Positions 6,413-46,233 of a stretch of DNA of 46,233 nt are shown one piece after another (within the stretch, counting starts at the first letter, position 1; each line of letters begins with the position of its first letter). The translations under genes were made by a program, and so were the position numbers. This DNA is from Reclinomonas americana ATCC 50394. Taxonomy: Eukaryota. The notes beneath the pieces are model-generated. The model worked only from the letters and a program-made list of their open reading frames with translations. It did no database searches and had not been told where the DNA came from. The stretch covers positions 8,294-54,526 of the forward strand of contig PS015536.1 in assembly GCA_048213135.1 (NCBI GenBank), given 5' to 3'.

Positions 6413-8120
6413 CATCCGAGATCTCCTGGCCCAACAACACGGCTGTCTCGTAGGTCCAGCAACGCGCCACATTGCGTATCGTGTAGCCGCCACCGCCGAG
6501 CACCAACAGCGGCACGTTGAACGACTTCATAAACTCGACGCAGTCGGCGTGGCCGCGTAGCGACAAGTTGAAGCAGCCGAGGCGATCACCCGTCAGCGAG
6601 TCCGCACCACATTGCAGCACGACGGCGCCCGGCTGGTAAAAGTCCATTACACGTTGCATGACCTGCGTGCGGTAGGAAGGCGTGAGATGGGGAAAGAGGA
6701 GAAAAAAGAAACGAGGGGAGAGGGTTCACGCACCGGCCGGAAAATGTTCTCGTAGCTAAAGTCGTCGATGCCGTCCTTCAGCGGGAAGTTGAGCGAGTAG
6801 TACTTGCCGACGCCGGCACCAATGTCGCGAATGTCGCCCGTGCCGGGGAAGTAGTCGCCAAATTTGTGGAACGACACCGTCATCACGCGGTCGGTGGTGT
6901 AGAACGCCTCCTCCACGCCATCGCCGTGGTGAATGTCAATGTCGATGTACAGCACACGCGCATGCACCCTGTGCACACACACACACACAAAAGAGAGAGA
7001 AAGGTCAGCCAGGCAGAATTAAAAAGAGAGAGAGAGAAAGAAAACACGCAAGGACGCAACTTGAGCAGCTCCAAGATGCCAAGCACAATGTCGTTGACGT
7101 AGCAGAAACCCGACGCCTCGGCCTTCTTGGCATGGTGCAAGCCACCGGCCCAGTTGATGGCAATCTGCAATGACGTGCATTGTCAGAAGAGGAGGCGCAA
7201 AAGGGGTGCGTAATGCAAGGTGGAACGCACATCAGACTGGCCCGTGTTGAGCTTGACCGCACCGGCCACCGAGCCGCCAGCACAAATCTGGCAAAACTCG
7301 TACAGGCCGTCAAAGACTGGGCAATCGTCGCCCACATTGACTGCGGAGGAGGCGGTGAAGGTGAGGGAGAGGATAAGAGAGGGAGGGAGAGAAGAAAAAC
7401 GAGGGGACGCAACAGAGGCTGAGTTGCCGCGAAAAGTCCTGCATGTTCTCGGGCGAGATTCGCCGCAAGAAGTCAATGTAGTCGTCCGTGTGGAACTTGG
7501 TGAGCTCTTGCTCCGTCGACAAGTGTGGTCTCTGCAGGCGAGTGAAGGCGACAGTGAGAGCGTGAAAAGAGGGAAAAGAAAGCATGCGCAAAGCAATGGT
7601 TTGGTGAAAAACGCAACATACACCGACATCTTCTTGTACAGGCCGTAGTTGAGGACGAGGTTGTGTGTCATCTTAATGCGGTGCGGCTTCATCGGATGGC
7701 CTTGGCCATAGTAAAAGTTGCCAATCGCGGCTGCAGGGGAAAAAAAAAGGCGGACACTTTAGCATGGAGCAAAAAAACAAACACAAACAAAAAGAGGCGG
7801 TGCAAGGAGAGAGGGCAGAGCAGGGTAAAAGGACACAAAAGTGACGCGGCAAGAGTGACAGAAAGTTTGCGCGCGCGCGCGCGCGGGATAAAACGAATAA
7901 ACAAAAAATGTCTTTTTCCTCCGCCCGCTGCAGGCATCACGCACCCCCACCACGCACGACACACACGCACACAAACAGAAAAGCGAGAGGAAAAAACACA
8001 GACAAAAAAGTGCCCGACATTTCACCATGGCAAACACACAAACACAAACACAAAACAAATGCAAACACATCACACACTGACGCAACAATCGTAAAAGTAC
8101 GATATCCGCGGCTTGGACAT
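6413..8120 (-). CDS. HDAC1: Class I histone deacetylase (RPD3/HDAC1-type); 3' end in gap
   Basis: Spliced frame: [34 protein letters not shown]...[12 protein letters not shown]...[23 protein letters not shown]...[17 protein letters not shown]...[17 protein letters not shown]...[15 protein letters not shown]. Seven exons visible. Confidence 0.97.
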
Positions 8121-8383
8121 CTTTCACGCGAAAGAGGGGGAAAAAGACACACGCACACGAGGCGGTCTTCGCTCCGACAACAACAGCAGGGTCCGATATG
8201 AATCGGAATGTTGGCGCCGGCGAAAGAGACGGGTGGATTGCAATTGGCACAAAGACAACTCAGACGCCACAGCCGAGCGCGTCTGCGTGTGTGTGACGAG
8301 AAGGTAGGCGAGCCAGCAGCAAAAAAGCGCGTGTTTTACTTTTGTTTTTCCTCACTTTCTTGTCGCGCATTTCCCGCCCGAAG
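8121..8383. promoter_or_regulatory. Probable bidirectional promoter, HDAC/PAN2 (263 bp between ATGs)
   Basis: Head-to-head starts at 8120 (-) and 8384 (+); inferred from geometry only. Confidence 0.5.
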
Positions 8384-9599
8384 ATGGCCTCGATTCCAGA
8401 GTTCATTCCCATGGCGCATCGGCTGCGACAACAGCAACAACAACAGCAGCAACAGCAACAACAACAAGCGCAGTTCACTGAGACGGGTGATGAAGGCGAC
8501 TTTGAGGAAGATGAGGGCGAGGAATACTATGATGATGATGATGAGGGCTACTATGAGGATGAAGACGATGGTCAGTGCTTCTGTCTCTTGCTGTGTGTGC
8601 CTCTCTCACTCGCTCACTGATCAATGCGCACAGTTCATTCTGCTGCGGTGCGACGACTTGCTCTCTCTTGTCTCTTTCTGCGTGCACAGTGCTCACACTC
8701 CTCCTCACTGACAGGCGTTCCACCCTCGCTCACTGATGATGAGTGCTAGCATGGAGGCTGGTGCTGGTGGATCTACTGGTGCTGCCGCTGCTGCTGCGGC
8801 GGCGGCGGCCAGTGGCAGTGGCGACTGGATGGACACGCATCACGTGTGCTGGAATGGAGGCGATGGAGCGGGAGTGTCGGCAGTGCTGATGGATCCGGCG
8901 CGTGAGGTGGTGTGGACCGGCACAGAGACGGTGAATAGCTCGCCTCTCCCCCTCTCCACTGGGGTGCTCTCTGCTCGCTCACAGTGGTGTTGCTGTAGGG
9001 CCGAGTGGCGGCGTTCTCGTATCCAGACATGGAACCGCTGGTGGCGTTCCCCACGCAAATGCCCGTGTCGGCGCTGGGGCCTCTGGGAAAGGCCAGTGAA
9101 CAGGGACCGGTGGTGCAGTCGGTGCAGCGATTGTTGTCGCTGGAGAACGAACGGCTGCTGTGCTTGACGTCGGTCGCCCTGCGTGTGTTTGACATTGGCG
9201 GAGCTCCGGTGCTCTCGTGTCGGTGCGCGGCATCGTCCCTCGACCTCCTCTCCGTGCTTTCCTCTCACCTTCCCGCGTCTGCAGACAAGACCGATTCACC
9301 GATCTGCTCTCTGCCTCGCTGTCGGTCACCAAGAAGCACGCCTACGTTGGTGGCAACATGCGATCGCTGTTCGTCGTGGACTTGGAGCTCGGTCGCCTGT
9401 TCACCGAGACGTCGGTGTCCAGTGGTGTGAGCGCACTCTTCACCTCGCCTGGGTCGCTGTGCTACGGCACGACCTCTGGCGAAGTTTGTCTGTGTGATCC
9501 GCGCTCCTTGCGGCTGGCGCAAAACATCAAGGCGCACTCGGCAGTCACTGATGTCGCCGTGCAAGACAACCTGGTCGCCTCGTGCGGATTCATGGAGCG

Positions 9600-9669
<70 letters not shown>

Positions 9670-12600
9670 CGCCGTCGATGCTCGCTGCGACTGTGCGCTC
9701 ACCGTACGTGTTGGTGTCGGCGCGTAGCAGATACGGCGAATTGTACCCCGACCCCTTCGTCAAGCTGTTCGACACGCGCATGAACGCACTCGTGTCGCAA
9801 ATCTCGGTGACTGGCGGCAGCATGGCGCTTCGCTTTGTTCCCAACCAGGTTCCGCGGGCATCACCTTTTTCGCACCACCTCCTCCTCCTTCTCCCCCTCA
9901 TTTTTCTCATGTGTTGTGCAGCGGCGACACTTGGCGGTGGCGTCGCCGTCGGGAGTGATTGAGTTCCGCGACATTAGCACACCGTCCAACATGCTGTACA
10001 TGTCGCTGAGCATGATCAACGCTCAACCACAATCGCTGCTCTCGTTTGACTTGTCGTCGACTGGCGAGTGCATCGCCGCTGGCGATCGCTACGGCGACTT
10101 GCATTCCGTGTCGCGCGTCATTGACTCCACGCTCAATTCGCGAGTCGAGTACTTTGACTTGTTGCCGGAGCCGCCGACTTTCGAATCAGTGGCGGTGCCG
10201 TTTGAGGCCGTGTTGCGTCCCACATCGTTGACGGTGGCTGCTCTTATTATTTGGTTGCTCATGCTGCTCCCCCGCCACCCGCAGTCCCGTGTTTGCTGCT
10301 CCTGCGCCGGCCTCTGGTCGCTACGCCTCTGAATGGCCGACAGACTTGTGCTCGGTTGGCGCTCGCCCGCCCGTCATCAAGTCCTCCATTCAGCAGTCGC
10401 TGCGTGTCACCGGATTCGTCGGTGCCATTTCGAATCCGGGTATCCGTTGCCACGAGCAGGCGTACGTCAAAGTGCGTGGCAAGGCGCGCAAGAAAATCAC
10501 ACTGCAGAGCATCGACGCCAAGGTGAGCCCCACAATCTCGCTTTCTCTCTCGCTGAGAATCTAACGACTCACTTGTTGCGTCTCCACATGCAGGGCTCGC
10601 CCTTCCGAGCCATCACGGATGATCTCACGGAAAAGGCGCAACGGGAACGCATCCCCAAGATCTACCTGCGCGTGGAGAAGAAGCAGTCGGCGGTTTCGTG
10701 GGAGGAGTTCGACTTCAAGTTGCGCAGCGATGCGCCTTTGTGTTGCTTTCTGTTGCCGGTGCCACTCACACGCGCCTCACAGAAAGTACAACAAGACTCG
10801 CTTCTGCGGTCTGGAGAATGACTTGCCGAACTGCTACGTCAATCCGCTCCTGCAAGTGCTGTACTTTACGCCGCGCTACCGCGATTTCGCCATGCAATAC
10901 CTGTCCAACGATCGGCAGTTCTGCTTGGCCAGCGAGTCTGGTTTCCTGTTCCGTTTCGTGGCTCCCGCGACGCAGAGCGCCTTCTCCACCCCCCCTCCTC
11001 CTCTCCCTCACACGCACAGCTTCCGCAGACATGATGAAGCACTTCAAGGGCGGCACTGCGCAAGCCAAGAACTTTTTGCGCGTCTTCCGTCAGATCCCGC
11101 AAGGTGTGCATGTCGTTGTTCACACGCGCCCCTTCCTCCTCCTCTTCTAACAACGACGTGCAGCTGCCGCTCTCGGTCTGTTTGACGACATGGTGCAGGC
11201 GACACACTCGAGCGAGGAACTCGAAGGCTCCGGCGGCAAGATCCAGAAAATGATGCGCTTCACTCTGGAGCACCTCAATCGCCTCCTCACCGAGGACTTG
11301 GAGGAGCAGGCCGCGAATCAGGCCTTCATCATGAGCCACATGTCGCGACCGCGCAATGCCCGTGGTCGTCAGGCTGCGGCCAGCAGCGAGGGTGGAAGCG
11401 GCTCGGAGGTGAGTTGGCGGTTGTTCGCTCTCTCCCCCTACTCTCGCACTCGCAAATGTCCCGCGTTGATTCTTGTGCGCTTAGTCGGCGTCGTCGGCTG
11501 CACAGTCCCCGTCGACCACTGTGATTGAGGACATTTGGGGCTCGATGATCTCCACCATCAATGTGTGCGTGCATTGCCGCACGCGGCACGTGCGCCAAGA
11601 TCGCTCCTTCTGTCTCGACCTGGCGCTGCCGGAGGACTCGTCGCCAGGCTCGCTGTTTGGCCTGCTGGCCTCGTCTTTCCGTCGCGAAACCAAAACCAAG
11701 GCCTGGTGCAGCAAGTGCTGCGGCTACCAGCTGACGCAGCAGAAGAAGACTGTCACCGACCTGCCGAATTCAATCATCTTTAACTGCGGGCCTGTGAGCG
11801 AGGTTTGTGTGGTGCACGAAATGCGATGAGAGTATTCGAGGATTCATATCCCCTCCGCTCATCCACTCCTTTTTTTGTTTGTAGAAACTCATGACCAACA
11901 GCCTGAATTTGACGGAGGAAGGGCGCAAGATGCCGCCGCGCTTCTTTGTGGACATGTCAAAAGCAGAGGAGGACGGACCAACTGTGGTGGAGAATGTGGA
12001 CTTGTTTGACGATCGTTCACGCTTTGTACAGTACGAGTTGTATGTTGCGTGCATGTCGCAAGCTGCTACCGCTTTGTGTATCATGCTGCTGCTGAGCTCT
12101 GGTATCCTTATGCAGGCCTTGATCGTTGACATTCGCCCACCCGACGACGACGAGGGTCACTTGGCTGCTCTCATCAAGGGTGCGTCGGCAGCACGTCCCC
12201 ATCCCATCCCGTCTCGTGATCGTCAAACATTTCCTTCTCTTCTGCACAGTGCCTCGGTCGTACTTTGAGGATGCGCAGTCGGTGGCGTCGCCAACACCAA
12301 AGAGTCCCACCGAAGTGATGGCGTCGGGACGCGATCGTGAGTGGTTCCTGTTCAACGACTTTCTCATTTTCCCGGAAGACGAGGCGACGGCCATCAACTT
12401 TGCCCCGTTCTGGAAGGTAGCTGCACTGACGCTTTTCTCTGCTTCGATGCTCGGTGATTCTCACAAACATTGTGTGGCGTGATAGTTCCCGTGCATTATG
12501 CTGTATGCACGCGAGGGCTTCCTGGACGAGCCGACACCGTACCGCGGTCGTTTGCACTTGTCCGAGGCCGTGTTCCGTGATCAGGGATTGTCACGGTGAG

Positions 12601-13655
12601 ACTCACATTTGCTTTGTTATTCTGCACATTGCATTCTTCTCAACTGATGTATATACCGCCAGCATGCAACCCTCGGCTCTGCGCTCGTTCCGCGCTCTCG
12701 ATCTGCACGAGAACTGCAAGGGCCAACTGGTGGCAATTGATGCCGAGTTTGTTGCCCTCACCAAGGTTTGTGTGCACTTCTGGATGTGTGCGCGTTTGCA
12801 CATCTGTGTATTCATTGTGGAGCAGGAGGAGCGCAAGATGCTGCACGACGGCACAAGCGTGGTGGTCACGCCACCCATTCTGTCGCTGGCTCGTGTGTCG
12901 GTGCTGCGCGGCGGTGGGCCAATGGAGGGCGTGCCGTTCATCGACGACTACATTCACACGCCGGAGCAAGTGTCGGACTACTTGACGCGTTTCTCGGGCC
13001 TCGTGCCAGGAGACCTCGATCCGAGTGTTTCGCGACACTTTGTCACGTCGCTGAAGGTGAAGGACGGAGTGAGGATTTGTGTTGGTGGTTGTGCTTTGCC
13101 TAACGGTGATTGAACGCAGGCGGCCTACTTGAAGCTGCGCTACCTGGTGGACAACAAGTGCATCTTTGTCGGCCACGGTCTGAAGAAGGACTTTAAGATC
13201 ATCAGTTGCGACACTCGTCAAGTGCGTGTCTGTTGCAGCTATCGTCATGCTCACTCTCCTCCGCAGACATTTATGTTCCCGAGGAGCAGATGCGTGACAC
13301 GGTGGAGTTGTTCAGCCTGAAGCAGCAGCGAAAGGTGCGGTGGGGGAAAGGGGAGTGGAGGAAAGACTCGTGATGCTCATTCTGCTGTTCTTTAGCTGTC
13401 GCTTCGCTTCTTGGCGATGCACGTGCTGCGCGAGAACATTCAGGAGCAGACCCACGACAGTATCGAAGACGCCAGGACGGTGAGTGTCTGTCTGTGTATG
13501 TCGGCTTCCCCCATGTTGCTTCCTCACCGCTGCGCCAGGCACTTCTGTTGTACAAGCGGTACTGCGAGCTGCAACAAGCCGGTACATTTGATCAGAAGCT
13601 CGAGGAACTGTACGCTATTGGTCGTCGCACAAACTGGCAAGTGGGTGGCAGATGA
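8384..13655 (+). CDS. PAN2: PAN2 deadenylase catalytic subunit (WD40 + USP-like + DEDDh exonuclease), about 23 exons
   Basis: polyQ/acidic N-terminus; WD40 (AH..V.DV.VQDNLVASCG, YPDPFVKLFD); FDFKKYNKTRFCGLENDLPNCY; WFLFNDF; VAIDAEFV; LARVSVLRG; FIDDYI; DYLTRFSG; FVGHGLKKDF; HDSIEDART. TGA at 13653-13655. Confidence 0.97.
8429..8467 (+). repeat. (CAA/CAG)13 polyglutamine tract in PAN2 exon 1
   Basis: Direct read. Confidence 0.9.
9603..9663. repeat. (TG)n microsatellite in a PAN2 intron
   Basis: Direct read. Confidence 0.95.
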
Positions 13656-13743
13656 CACAACGCTGCTAAAGTAAACACACTTCGTAATCCACGCCGTCAC
13701 CGACTTGTCCTACGACGTATCGTCTTTGCGTCGTATCTTGCGA

Positions 13744-16350
13744 ATGAGCGATCCACTGCTGCATGCCTGCGCCTTTGACTTGCTCGGCGATCATACCTGG
13801 GTGCTCATTGCGCGTTTCCTCAACTTGTTGCGTCGCACAGGTTGTCTCCCTCACTCTTCCCTTCGTTTATGCGAGTTGTCTCACATGTGTCGCCAGTCGC
13901 GACTACACAATGTGCTGGCGCGTGTGCACTCGTCTGTGCGAGCTGCTGGAGACACACATGAGTCGCATGCGACTAACACCCTTTGACGTGGCGCAACGCG
14001 GCGATCTGATTGTCACTGTGGATCACGTTCGCGCGCGTTTTCCGCGACTGAGTGCTCTCGATCTGGGCGGCTTTGCGTTGGGGTTCGAGGGTGCCCAGTC
14101 GTTCGCACAAGTGCTGGCACGACACAGCAACTTTGTGGAACTCGATCTGACGCGTTGCGTTCCCCTCTTATCTCGCTCACTGAGTGGAAATGGTCAATGA
14201 CTGAAGAAGCCACAGAGAACAACTTGCGACTGGGCGGTTCGCGAGTGGTGGGAGCTGCTGTGGCGGGATGCAGTCGACTGCAGCGGCTCATGCTGGGCAA
14301 GAACGGCATTGGTCCGCAGGGACTGGCGGCGATTGTGCATGCTGTCGTGCAGTCCGAGTCGTTGACGGAGCTCGACTTGCGCAGCAACGGCATCACGCAC
14401 GAGGGTGCGCACCAGCTGGAGACTCTGTTGAGAGGTACGAGGTGGGATGGAGTCGGGGAACGAGGCGGGCTTTTTGCTCACTCTCCTTGTCGTCGCGCGC
14501 GCAGAGAACGACACGATCACGCACTTGGATTTGTCGGGCAACCGACTGCGTGCGTTGGGTGCGGCGGCAGTGGGCCGTGGCCTCGGTGTGAATCAGTCGC
14601 TGCGCAGTCTGTCGCTGGCCGACACGAGTCTCGGCGACGAGGGCGTGATGGCCCTGTGCCGGTTTGGCGAGGCCGTGCCGGATGCTGCGGAGGCGGCCGC
14701 GATGGAGGGCGAAGGCGCCTCTGCGGGAGCGGCGCCAGTGATCGACGTGGATGTGAAACCCGACAATGAGAGGCTCGCTGGCAACTTTACGCTGGAGCGC
14801 CTTGTGCTGACGAAGAACAACATTACGGGAGACGGCACGAAGGTGTTGCTGACGGCGGTGGGTGCGCCGCGCAGTCGGGTGTGTGATTTGGTGTTGGACA
14901 GCAATCAGTTGTCATCGGAGGGCTCCTACGCCATTGGCGAGATGATTCGCGCACGGGTGAATGCCATTGCGCCGCTGAAGAGGATATCGCTGAAGGCCAA
15001 CGAGATTGGGCCGGCGGGTGCACGGTGGCTGGCGACGGCGTTGGAGGCGACTCGCTCGCGAGTCAGTCTGGTGTTGGATGGTGCGTGTGCGTGAGGGTGG
15101 GCGAGGTGAGAGGCGGTGTGGTTAGTGAATGTCGCACCGCGCAGGCAACACACTCGGCGGCACCGGCGTGCAACTGATGATGGAGAAGGTGCCGGTGACG
15201 CTGCTGAATCAAATGAGTTTCCGAGGTTGGTTGCCGATACTTGGTTTCTTTTGTGTGTCGGCCACTGACTGCGGCGTCGCACGAAATCAACAGACAATGG
15301 CATTGGCGAGCGCGGCATGCGTGCAGTGTCGGAGCGACTGGTTACGCTGGGGCGCATTCTCCTTGTTTTTCTTGGTCGCAGTGGCTGATTGTCGCCGTGC
15401 AGAGCATTAGCGGCATTCGGCGTGTGCACTTGGGCGGCAACGATCTCGGTGAACCCGGTGCCATGCTGTTGTACGAGGGATTGAAGGATCACACGCGGTT
15501 AACGGAGCTGCTCGTGCCATGTTGCGTAGTGTGATGTCGCCGATTGCTTCGCTCGACAGGGATTGACAGTTGATGGTGGCACGTGTAGCCAACAAGTTTG
15601 GCAAGGAGGGCGCGGTGTGGATTGCCCGGCTGCTGACGGAGAATCGGTACATTGAGACGCTGTCGCTGGAGTGTTGCGTCGCTGCGCTCGTGCCTGTGCC
15701 ACCTCACGCCACTCCGTGTCCAAATTCATCATGCACACCACAGCCAATAGCCTGCGCGACAAGGGCTGCCTCATTGTCACCGAGGCACTTTCCGAAGGCC
15801 GCAACACGTCGCTGCGGCGTCTCAACCTGTCGTGGAATCACATTGAGGCGGAGGGCGTGCGGCCGTGGCAGTTCATGCTGCGCGACAACCAGACCCTGAC
15901 CGAAATCGACATGAGGTGTGGGAGACTGTGTTTTCATCCCACACCTGATGTGGCTGACTTGCGTGCACGCAGCGCCAACCTGATCGACCCAGAAGGCGTC
16001 GCGTGGATTGCCACAGGTGCGGAATGATGCTCGTCGTCGTCCAGGGAAAAAACTCACCAATATACTACAGGGCTGGCTGGCAACCATTCGTTGGTCGGCC
16101 TCAGTTTGGCGTACAACCAGGTGTGGCCCGACGGCGCACAGTGCATCTACGACGCCCTACAGCAGAATACCACCATCCGGAGAGTTGCGTACACATTTTG
16201 CCAGGGCATGAACGAGAAGCGACTCACACCCCATGAACACAGTTGGACCTCTCCGCCACCATCACTGGCGAGTCCGGGCCCAAGCTACTGCTCACGGCCA
16301 TGCGCGAGAGAAGAGAGCGCAATCTGCCTCGCGTCGTGATCTCTCTCTAG
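13744..16350 (+). CDS. F-box + RNI-like leucine-rich repeat protein, 12 exons
   Basis: N-terminal F-box-like LLGDHTWVLIARFLNFRDYTMCWRVCTRL, followed by many LxxLxLxxNxIxxxG repeats (LTELDLRSNGIT, ITHLDLSGNRL, LRRLNLSWNHI). TAG at 16348-16350. Confidence 0.85.
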
Positions 16351-16365
16351 TGAACGCACATTTCA

Positions 16366-16984
16366 CTAGTCGGCGTACTGCACCTGCGTGCGTCGTATTC
16401 TCTTCTCCACGCGCTGCGGCACCTCACTGCGCAACCACCTCTGCGCGCGCAACGGCCACACCACTGCCACCGCGCGTCCATCCACAATACGCGCCGGCAG
16501 CGGCCCGTACATGTTGGCATCGACCGAGTTGTCAGAGTTGTCGCCCTCCATCCACAGAAAGCCGGCGGGCACGCGAACTGCACCGTGCATGGGCGCTGTG
16601 TCCGCACGCACAGCGACTACATCACCGGGCGTGGCGACTACGCGTTTGATCACATACTGCTCGGCGTTGAAAGGGTTGCGATAGGTGACCACATCGCCCA
16701 CTCGCACGCAGCGATGTGCATCGGAGAATGGATAGTTCCACACAAGAACCCACTCGCGGCCTTGCTGCGGACCGTCGGGGTTGAGCGAAGGCCACATTGA
16801 TGCGCCTCTGAGTGCGCGCGCAAGTGTGAGAAGCATGCACGGAGGAGTGTGCGCGGGCGAGTGAGTAAGTGCGCAACTGCACAGGTGCGATCTGCACGAC
16901 TTTGACGCGGATCAGTTGCGCCAGAGGGTACACAATGGCGAATGTCTTGACAAACTCCACGCCAAACAGCAGCAACTGTCGCAT
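16366..16984 (-). CDS. Mitochondrial inner membrane peptidase subunit (S26 family, IMP2-like), 2 exons
   Basis: Catalytic Ser box GASMWPSLNP, Lys box IKRVVATPGD, WMEGDN..NSVDAN.YGP and terminal AVVWP. Intron 16877-16808. Confidence 0.88.
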
Positions 16985-17077: not shown

Positions 17078-19710
17078 ATGCAACGAGCGGCCCGAGTCGC
17101 GCGTCGCTTCTACGGCGGCCTGGCTGACAAGGACCGCATCTTCACCAACTTGTTTGGAGAGCATCCGTATACGCTGGATGGAGCACTCAAGCGAGTTGCG
17201 TGAATGTGCAAGTGTGTGTGTGTGTGAGAGAGAGAGGGGAGAGAGAGAGCAGTGTGCAGTCGCCAGGTCGTGCTGTGTGTGTGAGAGAGAAACGAGTGCG
17301 TGTGTGTATACGTTGAGTTTTGCACTTTGGAGTTCAATTGCGCTTGCATATGCACACGCATTCAACACATCTGCTGTGTGCGATGAGACAGAGCACGCAC
17401 AGAGAGTGAACAAGTGTGTGCGTGAGAGTGAGAGCGAGGGAGGTGGAAAAGCAAGCGTTTCTCAGTGGACATGGCGCGCAATGTCTCACTCTCTCTTCTC
17501 TCTCTCTCTTTGGTGATTGTTTATAGGGTGACTGGTACCGCACCAAGGATCTGATCACGAAGGGCTCTGACTGGATCGTGAATGAGGTCAAGAAGAGTGG
17601 ATTGCGCGGTCGCGGAGGTGCAGGTTTCCCCTCGGGGCTGAAGTGGTCGTTTATGCCCAAGGTGTCCGATGGAAGGTGAGAGAACGAGGAGGGGAGAGTG
17701 GAACAGGGGTATCAGGTCAGCCTTTTCTCGTCATGCGTGATGATGATGGAGTGATGAGGGGGAGTGATGAAGGGCTTCTCGCCATATCTCTCCTTGTGGC
17801 CACTGTGCAGATGGCTCGTCCCTGCTTTCCTTTGCTCTCTGCCACCATTCTGCAGCGTCTTGCCTGCGCGATGTCATGACGTTCTTCTTCTTCTCCTGTC
17901 GTACGCGAACCCACCGCCCCGTCAGTGAGCGCATTTGTTTCCCTCTCTTTCTCACTTCCTCTCTCACACATTTGAAAAGCTTCATCGCTGTCACTCACTT
18001 GTTGTTCTCTCCCTCGTTTTCTCTCTTATTTCCCTCCCTTTCCCTTTCCCTCTCTCCTATCCCTCTCTCCTCTCCCTCTCCTCTCCCTCTCTCCTCTCCC
18101 TCTCCCTCTCCCTCTCCCTCTCCCTCTCCCTCTCCTCCTCCCTCTCCCTCTCCCTCCCCTCTCCCCCCTCTCTCCCTCTCCCTCCCGTTCCCTCACCCTC
18201 ACCCTCTCCCTCTCCCTCACTTCCCCTGCCAGGCCATCATACCTCGTCATCAATGCCGACGAGAGTGAGCCGGGCACGTGCAAGGATCGCGAGATTATGC
18301 GACACGATCCGCACAAGTTGGTCGAGGGCGCGCTGCTGGCCGGTGTGGGCATGCGTGCACGCGCAGGTAAATCACATCCTTTCCTCCCTCCCTCTCATAT
18401 CCCCTCTCTTCTCACACACTATCGCAGCGTACATTTACATTCGCGGCGAGTTCTACAACGAGGCGCTGAACCTGCAGCACGCCATCGACGAGGCCTACAA
18501 GGCGGGATTGATTGGTCGCAACGCCTGCGGCAGCGGCTACGACTACGATGTGTACCTCCACCGTGGTGCTGGTGCGTACATTTGTGGCGAGGAGACTGCG
18601 CTGCTGGAGTCACTCGAGGGCAAGCAGGTGCGTGCGAGCGTGCGCATGAAAGGAATGCCATAGAGTGCGATTCTCACTATGTTCTGTGGCTGCTGCGCAG
18701 GGCAAGCCGCGCCTGAAGCCACCGTTCCCAGCCAATGTCGGTCTGTACGGTTGCCCGAGCACTGTGACCAATGTGGAGACCATTGCCGTGGCGCCGACCA
18801 TTCTGCGTCGGTTTGTTTCTCGAGTCGAAGTTGTTACTACTGCTGCTGTGTGTATCACGCCCCAACACCTTCTCGTGTTGTCTGTCCAACAGTGGTGGTG
18901 ACTGGTTCGCCGCGTTCGGACGCAAGAACAACAGCGGCACCAAGCTGTTCTGCATCTCCGGCCACGTCAACAACCCATGCACTGTGGAGGGTACGTCCAT
19001 CTGTGTTTATGTGCCTTTGTTGCCACCGTAGGTGCTCATTCCCTCCATCTCGCAGAGGAAATGTCCATTCCTCTCCGCGAGCTCATCGAGAAACATGCCG
19101 GAGGTGTGCGCGGTGGCTGGGACAACCTTCTGGGCATCATCCCCGGTGGCTCTTCAGTACCAGTCCTGCCCAAGTCCATTTGCGACGATGTGCTGTTGCG
19201 TACAATATTCACGCGTTTATGTTGTGTGTCTCCTCTTCCTCCCGCTCTCCGCTCACCACCTCAATCTCACCAGGATGGACTTTGACGCCCTGAAGGCCGT
19301 CAACAGTGGCCTCGGCACCGCCGCCGTGATGGTCATGGACAAGTCGACCGACATTATCAAGGCCATTGCCCGTCTCTCCAAGTTCTACAAGCACGAGTCG
19401 TGCGGCCAATGCACACCGTGCCGCGAGGGCACCGGCTGGCTCATGCAGCTGATGGACCGCTTCGTCGAGGGCAACGCCGACGTGCGCGAGATCGACATGC
19501 TGGATGTTGCGCAGCGCTTGCAATTCGTCGCTCTGTGTGTGTTGTGCTCATCTCCGGTTGCTCTGCCAGGAAATCTCTCGTCAGATCGAGGGACACACCA
19601 TTTGCGCTCTGGGTGATGCTGCCGCATGGCCAGTGCAGGGTCTGATTCGTCACTTCCGCCCTGAGATGGAGGCGCGTGTGAAGAAGTTCCAGGCCGCCCA
19701 CCGCCGTTGA
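17078..19710 (+). CDS. NDUFV1: Mitochondrial complex I 51 kDa flavoprotein subunit, 9 exons
   Basis: [98 protein letters not shown] at 19708-19710. Confidence 0.98.
18060..18225. repeat. (TCCCTC)n polypyrimidine tract in NDUFV1 intron 2
   Basis: Direct read; the complementary strand is (GAGGGA)n. Confidence 0.9.
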
Positions 19711-20195
19711 GCGTGATCTCGGCGTGCCACATCTTCCGGCCTGTTTCTGTTTGTCTTGTTTTTCTTGTGGACGTGGTCGGTAGATGTTGGCTGGTTGTTG
19801 TTGTTGTTGGTTGGTTGGTTGGTTTTTTTGCTGCCGAGTTGGGTGGCGTGATGCGCACACTCGCACGTCCGCACTCTGGGGTTGCGGGTGGGAATGGGAG
19901 TGGGAGAGCAAGTGGTGGAGGGGAGTGCGAGGTTGGGCGGCGGCGGTAATGATGGTGAGCCGGAAGAATTGATGATGGGCTCGCCCACTCTGGCCACATT
20001 GTTGTCGTCGTCGTCGTCATCCTCTCCTCTCTTTCCCCACCCTTGCGTCCTTCCTCCTTTCCTCCTCTCGTAATCCTGGTGGTGTGTGTGCGTTTGAGCT
20101 CGTGTGTTTCTCGTTGCTTCCGTCTCGGTCGGCATGTGATGCTGTGGTGTATTGCGAAAATATGCGAAATCCGTATGTTACATTAATACTATTGA

Positions 20196-31911: not shown

Positions 31912-33775
31912 ATGCGGAGGCCGCGCTCGTCGCCTCTCGCGACTGTGCTCCTCCTCTTCCTCTGCTTCTGTTTCCTCCTTTCACCCTCGCCCTCCAGTGC
32001 CGACGCACTTGGTGACACTCGCGACTGCGATGCATCGTTTCCGTGGTCGCTCTTCACGCGCGCCAGCTGGCACCTGCTGCGTGGCGAGTCTCTGTCGTCG
32101 TCCGCCTCTCACCGCCCACCACACCATGGTGCAATGGCGCGCATCTCTGCTCCCTTTCGATTCCGTCGCCAGTGCCTCGCTGCATTCGAGTCGTGGTTGT
32201 CGCTCTCGGAGGTGTACATGACGCTGCAGTCGCCACGCAGCGGGCCCACACAGGTGCTGCATGCCGATGCCCCACTGGCAGCCGCACCACCTGGCGTCAT
32301 TCGACGACACCCTGCATTCGATCGGGTAAGGAGGCGCTTGATCAACAGAGACAAGTGATCGACTCACTCACTCGCACACCGCTGCGCACACAGGTGTCGG
32401 TGCTGTACGACGCCCCAGTGCGATTACCGACGAGTGCACGCGGCAGCACTGTCGGTCCACCAATGCTCATGCGATCGCCGACGCTCATGGAGCACCAGCT
32501 CACCGACCCGTACCCATCGTACTCGATCGTGGTGGAGAATGCGGTGTGTGTTCTTGCCCTCTTCCTCTGCACGAACTGCGCGTGACCGTGACGTGCCATG
32601 TGCAGCTCGTGACCCCCGACGATGTGGTGTTCACCAAGGAGCACGTGTTACTGGCGCGTTCGTGTCTGCCGCGCGTGCTCGAGGCGCCCCGCACGTGGGA
32701 GGCCACTGATGAGGTGCTGTTGGCCGACGCCGTGCTGCCGCTGCTGCAAATTTTCTCCGACGCACTGTTCCACATCATCATCGAGTCCCTCACGCGCCTC
32801 ATGCAAGTGTGGGACGAGGTGTACCCGGATCGCTGCATTGTGGTGCTCACACGACGGAGCACGTACGGGTCGCAGCTGACGCTGGATCTGTTTGAGGCTG
32901 TCGGCATTTATGGGGATCGAGTTGCGCTTGTGTGGTGCGGGCTTTTTTGCACTTGGAGTCCCCCTTCCCTAATTGCCCACAGATCGTTCTCGATCCGCCG
33001 CCGGTCATGGCACGCAAAGTGTACTTTGTGGCGGGTACCTACTGCACACAGTCGCAGCCGTCGCTGTTGCACGAGATTGCTCGTGTTTTCAACGTGCTGC
33101 ACGGCGACATGGTGCGCGAGGTCATGCGTGAATACTGGAACTGTTGCGTCCAACCGTGCTGGTGCTGGTCAGCATGTGTACTCGCTGCTGAATCGCACAC
33201 GTGCAGCACGGCGTTCTGTGCAACTGCGGACGCCGACGCCGAGTGGGCGGCCCCTGCGGCGTGTGGTGGTGATTGAGCGCAAGGGCGAGCGTGAGTTGGT
33301 GCAACACGACGAGGCGAGTGCTGTGCTTCTTTTCTCCATGCCTCCATCCTCCGTTGTGGCAAAGCTCACGTGGTGGCATATGTAGATTATCGCCATGATG
33401 CAACGCGATTTCCCGCACTTTGAGGTGGTGTTGTTGTCGCGCAACGCCACCGCCATGCAGGGAATCGTCGAGGTGGCCATGGCCGACATTCTGTTTGGCG
33501 CACACGGTGCGGGGTTCTCCTATCGCGCCTTTATCCGTGGTCGTCCGTGCGCCCACATCGAAGTCATGTACCACGCCGGCTTCGCGTGGGGCATGACGTG
33601 GAATCCCGGTCTGGTGTTGATGGCCGCCGCGCAGGGCTGCAAGACGTTTGTGCACTTTGACGAAAAGGGCACGCAGATCAGCGCGTTGGATGCACCAGTA
33701 GCCGATATCCGCTGGCTTCTGCAGCAGGCCGACGACTGGTTGGCCACGCAGGATGTGCGCAGGCCTTTCTCGTAG
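31912..33775 (+). CDS. Glycosyltransferase family 61 (DUF563)-like protein, paralog 1
   Basis: Signal/anchor segment, FHIIIESLTRL, VVIERKGERELVQ, ADILFGAHGAG...IEV. Confidence 0.8.
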
Positions 33776-33961
33776 ACTAGAAGGAGACTGAGAGCGACGA
33801 TTGCTGTCGATTTCCTCCTTCTCAGCCTGCTGTTGTTTGCGGCTACATGCGCAGAGATGGCCAGTGTCAGATCCCGGGCAGGCGACTGTGTTATTGAGTC
33901 GCCAAGTGAAAACAAAGGCCAGCACTTGACTGACGCGCAATTTCGTTTTCTTTTTCCGACG

Positions 33962-36325
33962 ATGCACACGAGGAGAGCGCTTCTTGTCGCCCTTCTCGCC
34001 GCGGTGGTGTGTGTGACCTCGTTTGTTACTCGATCTGCCCATCTCTCACTCTGCTGTGCTGCGTCAGGTGGTGTGCACATGCATGCTGGCATCTTCCGCC
34101 TCGATCGTCGGTGAGTCTGCGTGTGTGCATTCTGCGTGCGCACACACGCACACGCTCATCATCGTCTGTCTACAGATCAGAGCAGTGGAGACGCTGCTCT
34201 CGGCGTCTCTGCATCGCATCTCGACATCACTGCGGTGCGTTGTCTCTCGTCGGAGAGGAACTGCATGCATGTGAGACTCACGCAAACTCTGTTGCAGGTC
34301 CACGCATCGACGTCGCCTGAGGTGTTGCTGCAACACACCATCTGCCTCTTGCTGGATACAGTTTATCTCTCACACACCTCTCTTGCGCAGCACGAGGCCT
34401 GCCGACGCAACTTCCCGTGGTCACTCTTCTCGCCCGCCAGCTGGATCATGATGCGAGGCAGCAAGGCAGTCGACGACTCCTCGGGCCAGCCGCGACCACT
34501 GCACGTCGGTGCGTCGGCGCTGGTGATCCCGCCGTTCCAGATCCGCGCGGAATGTGCGGCCGCCTTCGAGTCGTGGCTGGCGCTGTCGCCCACGCTGCTG
34601 ACGTTGGCTCGGGAGCCGCCACTGAAGCTGCGAGCCGAAGAGCCCTTTGCTGTCATGTCGACGGCCAACAATCCGCGCTACGTGGTGCGTCGACACCCGC
34701 AGTTCGACATGGTAAGCACCCGATCTCTTCGCGTCTTTTCCTCTTTTTGCGTCGCCTGAGTGCCTGTGCATGATCAGCATCCTGTGCAACACGAACTGCC
34801 GGTGCGCCTGCCGCACTTGCAGCAGCAGGATATTGGTCCGCCCATGATCATGCGCCCGGGCAACCTGATGGAGCACCGACGGTCGCTGTACGTGCCGTGG
34901 GGCTCGATGGTGGTGGAGAATGCTGTTGCGTGAAATGTGCATGTTGGATCATCACTGCGCCCCTGCTGCTCACTTGTGCGCCTCGAGCGCAGCTCATCTC
35001 CCCACACGACGTTGTCTTCACCGACGATGCTGCCATGGAGGCGCGCTCGTGTCGCACCGCGGACGCCAACCCGCAGCCAATGCCGATCGAGTGGTCGGTG
35101 AACCAGGCCGCGCTGCTGTTGGACGCGGCGCTGCCGCTCATGCAGCTCTTCTCCCATCGCCTCTATCACATCATTGTCGAGTCGCTGCCGAGACTCATTG
35201 CGGTGCGTGGCGCGAAAAATACAAGTTGGGAGCGAGATGAGAGACTGCTCACCTCGCCTCGCACGCGTGCATGCAGGTGTGGGACGAGGTGTATGCCGAT
35301 CGCAGCATCTTCATCTTGGCCAGTGCCGTCGAGCACGGCGACCAGGTGGTGGTCGACACGTTTGCCGCGGTCGGCATTCCACGCGAGCGAGTTGCGTGCC
35401 GTGTGATTTACGTAGCTGCACGCGCTGCTGTCACTTCGGTCGCTGGTCTCACGATGGCGCAGTTGATACTGAGTCCGCCACCGGTCATGGCGCGCAAGGT
35501 GTACCTGGTGTCTGGTGTGTTTTGCACGCATCCGCATGCGACCGTGATACAAGGCATTCGTCGCGTGTTTGAGACCCTGCATGGTGACATGGTGCGAGCG
35601 GCTCTGCGGCAGTTGTGGGAACGTTGCGTGGGCAGCCGCGCTTTCTCTCAGTCTGTCACGCCCACACCTGCGCAGCGAATCGCCGACTGTGGGTTCGTGA
35701 CGGGCCGCTGACGCGTCGTCGCGCCGTGCGCCGCATGGCCGTGTTCCAGCGCACGAAAACTCGTGCCCTGGTCGAGCACAACGAGGTGCGCATGACCGCA
35801 TGCAGTCGATCGCTGTGTTTCGTTGCTGACGACGGCGGGCGCGCAGATTATGCAGATGCTGCAGACCGAATTCCCCCACTTCGAGGTGCAAGTGATCCCC
35901 GACAACGCCACTGTCGCGCAGGGCATTCTGGCGGTGGCCAACGCTCATGTTTTGTTCGGGCCGCACGGTGCCGGCTTTGCGTTTGCGGCGTTTGGCATTG
36001 GCCGGCCGTGCGCTCACGTGGAGGTCACGTACGGTGGCAACGACAGAGGCATGTCGTGGAATCCGTGCCAGTTGGACGTGACGGCAGCGCATGTTGCGTG
36101 GAGAGGAGAAAGAAGAGGTGGGAACGCGAGTGTCACTGCTCACCGCCACAGCAGGGATGCAAACAATTCTTCCTCTTTGACGAGTTCTCCAGCCAAATGC
36201 ACCCGACAATATCGGCGCCGGTGAACGACGTGCGGTGGATTATGCAGCAGGTGGACGAGTGGCTCGAGTCGCAAATGCCCCTAACAGTACCCGACGACGA
36301 CGACGGAGACGGAGTATTTGGTTGA
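33962..36325 (+). CDS. GT61-like protein, paralog 2
   Basis: Signal peptide over small 5' exons, FPWSLF, YHIIVESLPRL, VLFGPHGAG...VEV. Shares intron positions with paralogs 1 and 3. Confidence 0.78.
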
Positions 36326-36358
36326 GTGAAATCGTCCTGCTACTTGAACGCGACACGA

Positions 36359-38289
36359 ATGCAGAGCGCGTCTCGCTTCCTTTTCCGCCTCGCATTCCTC
36401 TGCTGCCTCCTCCTCCTCTCCCACACCCCACTCTCCTCCTCCGCCACACACGACAACGACGCCTGCGAAGACAACTTTCCGTGGTCACTCTTCGCCCCAC
36501 GCTCATGGAGAATGGTGGTCGGCAGCGACGAGCTGCTCGACGATAGCATGCGTCCTTTACACAAGGGCGCCATGGCACACATTAGCACGCCCTTCCACCC
36601 ACGTCTGTCGCGTTGCCGATCGCCCTGGTTGACAATCACTCGTGAGGCAATGAGTCTGCGTGAACCGCGCGTCGGGCCCGCCCAGGTGCTGCAAGAGTAT
36701 GAGCCGTATGATATGATGGTGTCGACGGGGAATCCGCGGTGTACTCTGCGTCGACATCCGCGTTTTGATCGAGTTGAGTGAGGAGGGCATGGAGATGATG
36801 ATGATTGCCATTAGGCAGCTCAATTCCGTTCTCTTTCTGCAGCAACGTGTGCAGTACGCGATGCCTGTGCGACCGCCGCATGTGCGACCGGAGGGAGTTG
36901 GCTCGCCGTTTGATCCGCGTCCGGGTGGCATGATGGAGCACCGCTTTTCGAACCACATGCCATCGCACTCGATTGTTGTCGAGAATGCTGTTGCGTGTGT
37001 GCTCTTGGTTCTGTGCAATGCATCTTGAGCTCACTGGGAAAGAGAGCAGGTGGTGGCGCACAGTGGATTGGTGTTCACGCCCGAGTACATGCTGGCGCCG
37101 ATCTCCTGCGAGTCCTTCAACCCCGATTTCCCGATGCAGTGGGAGACCACCACCAGTGCCGTGCTGGTGGATGCCGTGTTGCCGCTGCTGCAGGCATTCT
37201 CCGGTGGCCTGTATCACACGGTGGGGGAGTCTCTGCCGCGGCTCATGCAGGTGTGGGACGAGGTGTATCCCGATCGGAGCATCGTGATTGCCACCACCAG
37301 CAGCGACTATGGAGCGCAAATGATGTATGATTTGTACGCGGCCGTGGGCATTCCGGCGGAGAGGGTGAGTGCGCGCCCTGTATGGGTGCAGAGAGAGTAT
37401 AGATAAGTAAGTGGTGACTGTGCGCTGTGTGTGTGTGTACGTGCAGATCATCCTCGATCCGCCGGCGATCCTGGCCAAGAAAGTCTACTTCGTTGGTGGT
37501 GTGTACTGCACCGATGCACAACGGTCGCTGGTGCACGAGATGAATCGTGTCTTTGACTTGCTGCACGGCGACATGGTGCGATCGGCTCTGCGCGAGCTGT
37601 GGCAACGTTGCGCGTGCATGAGCATTCATCTTTCATTGTCTTGTGTATCAACCACCACTTCGCTCGCTACAGCCAAGCGCTCAGTGCGGTTGCGTACCGA
37701 TACCCCGTCTGGACGTGCTCTCCGACGCGTTGTCGTCATCAGCCGGGAAGGCCGGCGAGTCTTGGCTCGTGAGAGCGAGGTGAGTCTCTGTTGTCCTTTT
37801 TCTGCTATCATCTGTTCAGGTCCGTTGACGATTGCGGCGTGCAGGTCGTGGAGGCCATGCGACGCGAGTTTCCACATTTCGACGTACATGTGCTGCCGGC
37901 CAGCACATCAGTCGCCGCTGGCATCCTTGCAGTGCGTCACGCGCACATTCTGTTCGGCGCACACGGAGCTGGCTTTGCGTACGCTGCTTTCGGTGCCACT
38001 CGCCCGTGTGCCCACGTGGAGATCACGTACGGCCGTCGCCTCCCCTACTTTATGAAGTGGAACCCGTGCCAGATGATCCTGTCGGCGCCACACGTTCGTC
38101 GCCATCGCTTTTGCGGAGAAAATCCGACGCAGTCGCCACTGACTTGTTGGTCTGCAGGGTTGCAAGCCGTTCTTCCTGTTCGACGACGACGCGGAACAGC
38201 ATGCACCGGCACTCAAGGCCCCATGGGACGATATTCGATGGCTCCTGCAACAGGCAGACGAGTGGCTGGACTCGCAGCGATTGCCGTGA
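36359..38289 (+). CDS. GT61-like protein, paralog 3
   Basis: Signal peptide MQSASRFLFRLAFLCCLLLLS, FPWSLF, YHTVGESLPRL, ILFGAHGAG...VEI. Confidence 0.8.
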
Positions 38290-38476
38290 AAGTAAGTCAC
38301 ATGTACGTGATCGATCGGCCTGTCGAAGTCCGCAGCGACGAAAGCGCGAAAAAAGCCGCCTGTCGCTGGCCAGCGGAGCTCACCTCCATGCGCCATCACG
38401 TCGAGCCACGCGTCCGCTCGAGAGAATGAAGACGTTCATCGCGACTTGTCCTTTGTCATCTTCGTCAAATTCAATC

Positions 38477-41246: not shown

Positions 41247-41393
41247 ATGTAGACGGAGGGGTACTGGCCTGCGGAGTGGATGTGAGTGAACAAGAGCTTC
41301 ACGAACCTCACAGGGTGAACTTCGAGCTGGGAGTTGTCCCTGCGTCCGTGTAGGGCGTCGGTGTGGGCCGGTCGGTGTAATTCGTTTAGTACC

Positions 41394-44300: not shown

Positions 44301-45881
44301 CTTACAAGGCACGCACGCAGTTTGGACACGCTGGCCGCCTTGCACACAAACAAGGTGACCCACCGCGACATTCGGCCGTCGCACATTTTCCTGGCGGGCT
44401 CCGAGCGCGAGCCGGAAGTCAAGCTGCTGCACGTGGGTCTTCGCGCCGCACTCACTGGTCTGGAGGCCACCGAGTTCAACACGGTAGGCGACCATGATGC
44501 CCGCCGTCACCGTGTTCCCAATGCGCACCTCATTCGTGTGTGCCGGCGCAGATTTTTGGCGCTCCAGAGCTGCTGCTCTGCCGCATGATGTACGACAGCG
44601 ATATTTGGGCGGCCGGCATGGTCATTCTGTCAATGTTGCAGAGTCGGGGTCAGCGTCAGGAGCCGCTGTTGTTGGGCGACCGCACCAGCATCTTCCGTGC
44701 CATGTTCCAGGTGCGTGGGACACTTTTCGGTCGCTTCGTGTGTCGGTGCGGTTTCTGATTTTCTGTCTGTGGTGCAGCTGCTGTCGGTGTCGGGCGATGA
44801 AGCGTATCACTTTTCAAAGAACTGCGGACTCACCGACGAGGATGCCGACAAGTATGCGCAAGTCGCCGACGCGGAATCGGCCAAGTCCGCTCACCGCCTG
44901 CGTGACGTGCGTGTGTCGGAACAGTGTCGGACGCGACCCTTCACGCGTTGACCCTCTCTATCGGTACAGGTCATTGAGGGCGCATCGGCACGCGGTATCG
45001 ACGTGGTGCTCATGATGCTAGCGTTCTTGCCGGAGAAGCGGTGAGCTCGCGCAGCATTTGACGTCGCAACGTGGTGAATGGTCTCTAAAAATGTTGATGC
45101 TCTCGTCAGTGCGACGCTGCACGAAGCCATGCAGCACTCGTTCTTCTCGCAGTTCGATCTGGTACCCAAGACGCCGGCACTCCCACCACGCGCGGCTGTG
45201 GCGACCACATTCAGTTGCGTGCAAGTGTCTCTTTCGCTTTGCAGTCGTCACGCTGAAAGAAGGATTTGCAGCTCGCGCTGTGCCTGCCGTGGCCGTCGCT
45301 GCCCCTCCACCGCCCACTGCTGCCACTGCTGCTGCTGCTGCACCTGCGGTTGCCGTGGCCGCCCCACCAGCTGCTGCTGCTGCTGCTGCTGCTGCCTATC
45401 CGTCTCCTCCACCCGCCCCGCCCGCTGTGGCAGTCGCGGCGCAGCCACCACCACCACCACCTGCTGTTGCTGTGGCATCACCGCCAGTGGCTNNNNNNNN
45501 NNNNNNNNNNNNGTCGCATCTCCACCACCACCGGCCGTGGCAGTTGCCGCGAAACCTGCAGTCGCCGTCGCCAAGCCACCGTCCCCACCACCGCCGCCAG
45601 CAACGGTCGAAGAACCGTCTGAGAAGGCCGCCGCCGTCGCCGCCGCCGTGGAGGAGCCGACTGCTGAGACCGCATCGACTGAGGAGACCTCGATTCCCGC
45701 TGCTGCTGCTGCTGATGCTGATGCAGCGGTTGGCGGTGCAGAGGAAGGCGAGGAGGAGGCCGAAGCCGAGGCCGAGGAGGGTGCAGAGGAAGAGGGCGAT
45801 GCATCCGGATCAAAGCCGAGCGCGCCGTCTGCTGCAGCATCGGGTGGCAAGAAAAAGCGCGGCAAGAACAACCGCCGCTGA
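41394..45881 (+). CDS. Putatively N-myristoylated WD40 + coiled-coil + pseudokinase + Pro/Ala-rich and acidic tail protein
   Basis: MGQKQS start; WD motifs VAVGFGDGSVTVFE, ILTGGTDGLVRLWS, SDGLLHGWN; kinase fold HRDIRPSHIF, GAPEL, DIWAAG, KRATLHEAMQHSFF. A small gap lies at 45493-45512. Confidence 0.7.
45493..45512. other. Assembly gap (N run)
   Basis: Ns. Confidence 1.
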
Positions 45882-45995
45882 GGGGAGGGGGGAACGAATG
45901 CGTTTCTGTATCTCAGAGAAACACGAAACAAACATAAACTAGCCGCTTTATCCTTATTCTGTTACTACAACAACAACAAACATGTAAACAGGGGC

Positions 45996-46233
45996 TCAAT
46001 ACGACTGGCCCGTCACCATGCCCACATCGACGAAAATGTCCTCGAGAGCTGTGCGATGCGAGTGAGTTGTCAGCCGACAGAATGAAGAGTGCAGCGCGCA
46101 CGCAACTGGTTTCGGTGATGGACCAGTCGCGTATTCTGAACGCTGCTCTGTTGGCTTCCATAATACCAAACACGCGAGACAGTCGTGTCCTTCGGGCCGG
46201 AAACTGCATCGACGGATGACGAGTGAGATGCGG
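45996..46233 (-). CDS. C-terminal end of an ABCA-subfamily ABC transporter (partial)
   Basis: LSRVFGIMEANRAAFRIRDWSITET|TLEDIFVDV, typical of the ABCA C-terminus. TGA at 45998-45996. Confidence 0.75.
   Translation of the reverse strand, partial: RISLVIRRCSFRPEGHDCLACLVLWKPTEQRSEYATGPSPKPVACALHSSFCRLTTHSHRTALEDIFVDVGMVTGQSY

Follow-up and report, generated by a model that had tools for sequence, protein, structure and literature searches.

The 5′ splice sites (donors) of introns are of more than one kind, and the two kinds distinguished so far are reportedly also called left- and right-handed sites and are said to be regulated by LUC7 proteins. According to PMC11732430, the two major classes in the major spliceosome are AG//GUNNN, the U5 loop 1 type, and NN//GURAG, the U6 ACAGA type; a strong exon side and a strong intron side rarely co-occur and either one is enough. 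Here, we analyzed a stretch of 46,233 bases from Reclinomonas americana ATCC 50394 (the window; contig PS015536.1 of assembly GCA_048213135.1, with coordinates counted from the first base of the stretch), which has about 59% G+C and is dense with intron-rich eukaryotic genes. The introns in the window are of the major GT-AG type and their donors fall into two nearly exclusive classes. In class A, which comprises about two thirds of the introns, an ordinary donor follows an exon that ends in G. In class B, about one third, the intron starts with GTTGCG and the exon ends in A, C or T. This near-absolute split between exon-end G and GTTGCG is a form of the known two-class donor behavior, with a new word. 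In a literature search based on the motif, no GTTGCG donor class was described among the matches listed.

To place introns, we used a custom protein-to-genome aligner, in which an intron was allowed where a GT..AG pair (35-1200 bases) improved the BLOSUM62 alignment. The aligner possesses no donor or acceptor model, and GT..AG is its sole splice requirement. In an HDAC1/2-type deacetylase gene (HDAC; 6357-8120, minus strand), six introns were identical in five of five homologues, and in NDUFV1 (17078-19710, plus strand) eight introns were identical in six of six. Each of the 19 introns in PAN2 (8384-13655, plus strand) had the backing of three or more of the five homologues; the N-terminal part of PAN2, which is poorly conserved and where the homologues disagreed, was excluded. 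Three tandem GT61-like glycosyltransferase paralogues (a, b and c; 32463-38289, plus strand) were aligned to one another and this fixed 14 introns, the less certain ones at 33323, 34712 and 36773 being excluded. One further intron, in the gene for mitochondrial inner-membrane peptidase (IMP1; 16366-16984, minus strand), was read by eye; its splicing rebuilds the GASMWPSLNP motif. The homology-fixed set thus consists of 48 introns. Removal of these introns turns each of the six coding sequences into one open frame with no internal stop.

In this set, 20 of the 23 introns after a non-G exon end start with GTTGCG, and none of the 25 introns after an exon-end G does so (Fisher p = 1e-10). The three non-G introns with other starts are T|GTGCGT at 7230, C|GTTTCG at 10953 and C|GTTCGT at 38094. 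The original prediction, made by inspection of the letters, had claimed that GTTGCG is used after A, C or T and never after G, and that cleavage lies at the GT; the first claim is borne out by these counts and the second holds for the homology-fixed introns, placed with an aligner that imposed GT..AG only.

The anti-correlation between exon-side and intron-side strength that characterizes the AG//GUNNN and NN//GURAG system is therefore also seen here: GTTGCG is found in 20/23 and 0/25 introns, respectively, and class A exons have A at -2 in 14/25 and G at -1 in 25/25. However, the GURAG intron-side consensus is absent from class B, in which +3 U, +4 G, +5 C and +6 G are found in 20/20 donors. 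The class B word GUUGCGU carries its G at +6, unlike GURAG, and does not fit canonical U1; by our own pairing with the U6 sequence, the word does not fit the ACAGA box either. Furthermore, in the two-class species described so far the classes overlap and share the +5 G, whereas the split in the window is almost absolute.

The class B donors of the homology-fixed genes are as follows; those in HDAC, PAN2, NDUFV1 and IMP1 had been listed in the original prediction and were reproduced by homology. In HDAC (minus strand; five of five homologues at each donor), they are T|GTTGCGT of intron 1 (8080..8086), T|GTTGCGT between Y and RPH (7611..7617), T|GTTGCGT that splits the F codon of F-NVG (7407..7413) and A|GTTGCGT (7054..7060). 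The HDAC donor T|GTGCGTT (7224..7230, minus strand; five of five) is a genuine exception, that is, an ordinary donor after a non-G exon end. In PAN2 (plus strand), T|GTTGCGT (10212..10218), A|GTTGCGC (10719..10725) and A|GTTGCGA (13205..13211) are supported by five of five homologues and T|GTTGCGT (12044..12050) by three of five; C|GTTTCGT (10953..10959; five of five) is a one-base variant of class B. NDUFV1 (plus strand; six of six homologues) contains A|GTTGCGT (17195..17201), T|GTTGCGT (19195..19201) and T|GTTGCGC (19506..19512), and the by-eye intron of IMP1 starts at A|GTTGCGC (16871..16877, minus strand). Among the GT61-like genes (plus strand; paralogue alignment), class B donors are T|GTTGCGT in paralogue a (33143..33149), C|GTTGCGT (35623..35629) and T|GTTGCGT (36093..36099) in paralogue b and C|GTTGCGC in paralogue c (37607..37613). 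The paralogue c donor homologous to 36093 is C|GTTCGTC (38094..38100), which is an exception or a variant.

Intron positions are conserved among the three GT61-like paralogues, so that homologous donors on the plus strand can be compared directly. After residue 27, paralogue a possesses the class A donor gcG|GTGTGTG (32544..32550), whereas paralogues b (34925..34931) and c (36990..36996) possess the class B donor gcT|GTTGCGTG. After residue 132, the donors are class B in paralogues a (cgA|GTTGCGC, 32921..32927) and b (cgA|GTTGCGT, 35391..35397) and class A in paralogue c (agG|GTGAGTG, 37365..37371). Thus, at two homologous positions, the donor class switches along with the last exon base, while Ala (GCG/GCT) and Arg (CGA/AGG) are kept. 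The sole G-preceded GTTGCGT of the window (37689..37695, plus strand) lies within an exon that is conserved among the paralogues (..SVRLRTDTPSGR..). The translation of this exon (..SVRLRTDTPSGRALRRVVVI..) matches the paralogues, and this copy of the word is apparently read through and not spliced.

We then compared the two classes base by base. On the exon side of class A (n = 25), A is found 13 times at -3, A 14 times and C 8 times at -2, and G in all 25 at -1. The intron side of class A is loose: GU is followed by G more often than A or U at +3 (G, 17), any base at +4 (A, 10; C, 8; T, 6), G at +5 (20) and U at +6 (T, 17). In class B (n = 20), +1 to +6 are GUUGCG in 20/20 by class definition, and +7 is T in 14, C in 5 and A in 1; class A is variable at the positions where G4, C5 and G6 of class B are invariant (20/20 each). 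The -1 base of class B is T in 11, A in 7, C in 2 and G in none. Nine class B introns are in phase 0, and the exons before them end in T in six cases, in A in three and in C in none, although 38% of third codon positions are C (p = 2e-4). Thus, the exon end of class B is constrained to a weak base.

Away from the donor, the classes are alike. The median intron lengths are 69 and 68.5 nucleotides (nt), a CTCAC/CTGAC-type branch motif (YTNAY) lies at a median of 15 nt (class B) or 18 nt (others) from the 3′ end, and in both classes a pyrimidine-rich tract precedes YAG, the ends being CAG or TAG. Nor do the classes differ in the base with which the next exon starts. Class A and class B introns are ordinary U2-type introns that differ at the donor alone. 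We considered whether the class B donor pairs with the 3′ end of the intron, and rejected this idea: CGCAG ends are equally common in the two classes (6/20 and 6/25, counted by eye). A boundary slipped by one base was also rejected, because the downstream exons do not consistently start with G.

These features bear on the idea that class B is an expanded and transformed minor (U12-type) class read by U11 and U6atac. U12-type introns have a nearly invariant start and need no exon-end G, and large expansions of minor introns have occurred in Physarum. Class B resembles the U12-type in its long and nearly invariant 5′ word, in the missing exon-end G and in being mixed with ordinary introns. However, class B does not start with RTATCCTT, the U12-type consensus. 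Its 3′ parts resemble those of class A in their CTCAC/CTGAC-type motif and pyrimidine-rich YAG end, and a TCCTTAAC-type branch box is absent. Moreover, class B makes up about 35% of introns, as compared with under 1% for the U12-type. We consider a U12-type origin extremely improbable.

A historical or artefactual origin was also considered, in which class B would be one mobile or duplicated intron family or an effect of the reconstruction. In some algae and other protists, there are introner-type elements whose ends are fixed. In an all-against-all blastn comparison of the 48 intron bodies, however, the only matches were GT and CT simple repeats, and therefore class B is not a repeat family. 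As for the reconstruction, ab initio gene models, of which the donor model is blind to the exon side, agreed at 37 of 48 introns in the stretches open to a check by homology and were wrong at the other 11, which could be taken as a sign of artefact. Eight of these 11 errors were false calls of an ordinary donor after a non-G exon end and one was a false call of GTTGCG after G (at 37689, the sole call of this kind). Because eight of the 11 were of the former kind, the errors dilute the pattern and do not create it. Since the ab initio models are error-prone, the test described above rests on the homology set, in which the donors lie in conserved genes and are fixed by five to six independent homologues each with the donor-blind aligner. 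As a control, the same aligner was applied to nine unrelated metagenome PAN2 loci, which look intron-poor and were used for this purpose only; it opened 43 gaps, of which 18 were after G and 0/43 started with GTTGCG. An artefact is also hard to reconcile with the paralogues, which switch class together with the exon-end base. The historical or artefactual explanation is thus largely refuted here, and we regard it as very unlikely.

In genes with ab initio models only (63 introns), 33 introns follow a non-G exon end, 12 of which start with GTTGCG and five with a one-base variant, and 30 follow G, none of which starts with GTTGCG. Pooled with the homology set, GTTGCG is found at 32/56 non-G introns and 0/55 G introns. 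The original prediction had counted about 135 introns, with 36 exact and seven variant starts among 49 after non-G and none among 87 after G; these proportions stand, and the exact totals were not reproduced. The word itself is over-represented: GTTGCGT occurs 37 times on both strands (one copy after G), as compared with 10.75 +/- 3.1 expected from 100 dinucleotide-preserving shuffles, none of which reached 37. The hexamer GTTGCG occurs 66 times on both strands, six times after G. When these 66 copies were sorted, five of the donors being judged by context or open frame, 37 were intron starts, none after G, and 29 were non-donor copies, six after G (p = 0.005).

The ab initio-only class B donors include T|GTTGCGT (13827..13833, plus strand) in a gene for a leucine-rich repeat (LRR) protein (13744-16027) and further donors at 14154, 15521, 15673, 23610, 23974, 27929, 29389, 40460, 41566 and 44263 on the plus strand and at 105 on the minus strand. 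The plus-strand positions had been named in the original prediction and are recovered by donor-blind models. In an FHA-like gene (about 22404-23158, minus strand), the donors A|GTTGCGC (22828..22834) and C|GTTGCGT (23076), likewise predicted, agree with the continuity of the open frame and with residues that we take to be FHA-like. Three other predicted positions are candidate donors by their intron-like context: A|GTTGCGT (46100..46106, minus strand) precedes 58 nt that resemble an intron and contain CTGAC/CTCAC and CACAG, and the contexts of GTTGCG at 45214 and 16184 (both plus strand) resemble it. A genuine exception lies in a kinase gene (27086-31832, plus strand), where the donor T|GTACGTG (29498..29504, plus strand) leaves HRDIKPNNILVDLQLNIKLCDFG intact as judged by motif spacing, for which we assume the usual HRD...DFG distance.

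Next, we considered which molecule reads the class B word. The canonical U1 5′ end is ACUUACCUG. We calculated nearest-neighbor duplex energies between this sequence and the donors, and compared them with those of 993 decoy GT sites. Class A gave a mean of -7.60 kcal/mol and was well separated from the decoys (area under the curve, AUC, 0.975). In contrast, class B gave a mean of -0.81 kcal/mol, which is weaker than the decoys (-2.48 kcal/mol; AUC 0.217). Among test sites with a non-G exon end, the predicted energies were -6.6 kcal/mol for GUGAGU, -6.5 kcal/mol for GUAAGU and -0.6 kcal/mol for GUUGCGU; GUGAGU and GUAAGU donors are almost absent after non-G exon ends. We also scanned every possible seven-base guide (16,384 in total). 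The core of the canonical end, ACUUACC, ranked 72nd for class A, and therefore the scan recovers U1 for this class, whereas the same core ranked 15,825th for class B. In both the predicted duplex and the guide scan, the class B consensus is not complementary to ACUUAC. Because these energetics fall below those of decoys, they point to a reader of GUUGCGU other than canonical U1 pairing.

The original prediction had described GTTGCGT as the common GTGCGT with one extra T, which moves the G from +5 to +6, and had likened it to human sites that pair with U1 in a shifted or bulged register. The first description fits: +1 to +7 of class B (GUUGCGU) equal -1 to +6 of class A (GGUGNGU) except for the second base. 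This equality also favors the possibility that ordinary U1 recognizes GUUGCGU through a non-canonical register, the weak pairing being offset by proteins of the small nuclear ribonucleoprotein. Either the register would be shifted by one, with the intron G+1 in the place of the exon G-1, or a U would be bulged at +2/+3. In the shifted register, one pairing rule would serve both classes (G with U1 C9, U with A7, G with C4 and U with A3). Class B is also similar to the human sites of this kind, which start with GUU, have a consensus displaced by one base and are cleaved at the GU. Experiments in human cells have established both the shifted register and the +2/+3 bulge (Roca and Krainer; Tan et al. 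2016, PMC4856993).

The pairing data, however, do not agree with this second part of the original prediction. A plain shifted register on ordinary U1 is a poor fit because class B pairs worse than decoys and the canonical core ranks near the end of the guide list, whereas human register sites keep good complementarity to U1. The better-pairing GUGAGU and GUAAGU would be available after non-G exon ends and are hardly used. At +5, class B invariably has C (20/20), for which U1 position 5 is no partner, whereas A would pair. Human shifted sites have A at this position. The frequencies also differ: in human, the +2/+3 bulge class comprises 54-68 of 201,541 sites and all such registers together 1.5-2.1%, according to PMC4856993, as compared with about a third of the donors here. 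Furthermore, class B is tied to the exon-end base, unlike the human register sites. We consider a non-canonical register of ordinary U1 rather unlikely.

Several lineages with atypical donors have been described, and one report (Roy and Bowser, 10.1101/2022.06.08.495308) covers U1 sequences in them. Entamoeba possesses a U1 with AACAAAC together with GUUUGU donors, and Mastigamoeba a U1 with ACGUAC; in Physarum, standard and modified U1 candidates are reported together; in Thecamonas and Mamiellales, canonical U1 is kept despite C at +4. Class B is like the Archamoebae case in that a lineage-specific donor word is not paired by canonical U1, for which an altered U1 5′ end was the explanation given there; coexistence of two U1 types is a further possible parallel. 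In Archamoebae, a single atypical consensus is found in nearly all introns and in the canonical register. In contrast, two classes are present in the same genes here, and one of them is offset by one base and does not occur where the exon ends in G. Diplonemid-type donors were dropped from the comparison, since the canonical diplonemid donor is (G)/GTATG (PMC12621601).

The original prediction had named a variant U1 or U6, a second small nuclear RNA or a dedicated factor as candidate readers, all of which are compatible with the present analysis. Among the explanations considered, we tentatively favor a co-evolved or additional U1-type guide as the reader of class B. In this model, a canonical-type U1 5′ end would recognize class A by way of the exon-end G and of +1, +2, +5 and +6. 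Class B, which is not complementary to that guide, would be read by a U1-type guide with an ACGCAAC-like 5′ stretch, while U5 and U6 would still place the scissile bond at the GU. Guides of the ACGCAAC type separate class B from decoys with an AUC of 0.997, but trivially so because ACGCAAC is the complement of the class B word. The guide could be a single altered U1 (..GYAACCU..) or a second U1 paralogue. Single guides that serve both classes were found in the scan: GUAACCU gave AUCs of 0.89 for class A and 0.98 for class B, and GCAACCU gave 0.86 and 0.99. With a GYAACCU guide, the pairs are formed on the intron side in class B, and with the exon-end AG and the GU in class A. The either/or pattern might then reflect a window of duplex strength, in which seven intron-side pairs would need no exon G and the loose intron side of class A would require exon-end AG.

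A more specific form, with two guides in one cell, is possible but doubtful: canonical U1 would act after an exon-end G, and a second U1-like small nuclear RNA (snRNA) of ACGCAAC type, or a dedicated factor, would act on GUUGCGU. With two guides, the last exon base would decide the recognition system.

Several points weigh against a U1-type guide for class B. The scan of the window found a U3 gene as the sole snRNA-type gene and no U1, U5 or U6 gene in the window. Class A fits the canonical guide (AUC 0.92-0.975) slightly better than the joint guides (0.86-0.89). An ..AACC.. guide would also pair with an exon-end G, and so the missing G before GTTGCG needs an extra assumption, for which an upper limit of duplex strength, or a lack of selection on the motif once G is present, is a candidate. 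The duplex energies leave out pseudouridines and U1 proteins. An H-preceded GTTGCGTG at 39707 sits inside a predicted exon and therefore the heptamer alone is not sufficient as a donor. The intron boundaries are predicted from sequence and homology, and all results come from one 46-kb window. In addition, most eukaryotes have kept the U1 5′ end unchanged, and several lineages with atypical donors are among them, according to 10.1101/2022.06.08.495308.

Another explanation is that the motif is read after or beside U1, by a protein of the early complex (LUC7-, U1C- or TIA1-like, or lineage-specific) or at the U5/U6/PRP8 stage. The U5/U6 version would be a local form of the known division between exon-side (U5 loop 1) and intron-side (U6 ACAGA) donors. 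The exon end of class B, with U in 11, A in 7, C in 2 and G in none, and with C depleted in phase 0 (0/9 against a 38% background, p = 2e-4), shows that the exon side is also read. Against the U6 stage, no ACAGAGA register explains the invariant G4 and C5 in our own pairing with the U6 sequence. Against a protein, seven nearly invariant bases resemble a nucleic-acid duplex more than the site of a typical RNA-binding protein. We consider this explanation unlikely.

The choice of 5′ splice sites, especially the division of work among U1, U5 and U6, is still debated, and its terms have so far been set by animals, plants and yeasts, whose donor classes overlap and are statistical. In the window, the classes are nearly digital and lie side by side in the same genes, and for one of them the donor is a fixed word of seven bases to which standard U1 is not expected to bind. 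If this holds genome-wide, nature would provide a clean separation of exon-side from intron-side recognition, together with a concrete sequence prediction for U1 or a second guide. It would also give a simple rule to improve gene prediction in this lineage, where donor-blind models were wrong at 11 of 48 introns checkable by homology.

Apart from the genes described above, the window contains a long region with TPR, WD-like and kinase segments (38.5-45.5 kb) and the U3 small nucleolar RNA gene (1040-1242, plus strand; Rfam RF00012, full-length match, 56.9 bits, E 5.8e-10), which is flanked by two minus-strand protein genes. Five masked N stretches (4341-5115, 5678-6356, 20933-21270, 21502-22403 and 45493-45512; 2,714 bases in total) break at least the 3′ part of HDAC and the stretch that separates NDUFV1 from the FHA-like gene.

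In the protein searches, no match was identical to the predicted proteins of the window. For HDAC and NDUFV1, the nearest named matches were jakobid and heterolobosean. The best named match of HDAC was from Seculamonas (86% over one exon), those of NDUFV1 were a record named 'An...' (81%) and Naegleria (78%), and the nearest named match of PAN2 was the EukProt entry 'Rmarinus'. A metagenome scan with a PAN2 exon gave 43 loci, among which there was no close relative; identity was 67% or less in all of them apart from two short segments with 81%. A search with a GT61-like paralogue exon gave unnamed clusters only, with a weak lead to Glyco_transf_61 (score 0.87).

Two further introns were noted. 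In paralogue a, a likely GC-AG intron, gaG|GCGAGTGC ... TGTAG (33314..33385, plus strand), corresponds to gaG|GTG... donors in paralogues b and c. Its removal deletes a three-residue insertion relative to these paralogues; the aligner, which accepts GT only, had set this donor nine bases downstream. A probable class A intron of about 66 nt, aaG|GTACGCAT ... CACAG (about 39841-39906, plus strand), was missed by the ab initio models, which read through it in frame as VRIVRSNRETMSLMLTCRTQ.

The C-terminal exon of the kinase gene (30550-30903, plus strand) looked KEN/IRE1-like. A search with a kinase exon of 118 residues gave one weak match (E 5.9e-05) among 1.84 billion representatives; the kinase gene thus seems either to lack relatives or to evolve very fast. 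At 19874-20080 (plus strand) and 23438-23535 (both strands), microRNA precursor models gave weak matches below threshold (E 0.02-0.5), which are probably GT-repeat or hairpin-prone sequence and not genes. The first exons of PAN2 are not fixed by homology; the predicted N-terminus (8384-8570, plus strand) contains a run of 13 glutamines and an acidic stretch rich in D, E and Y.

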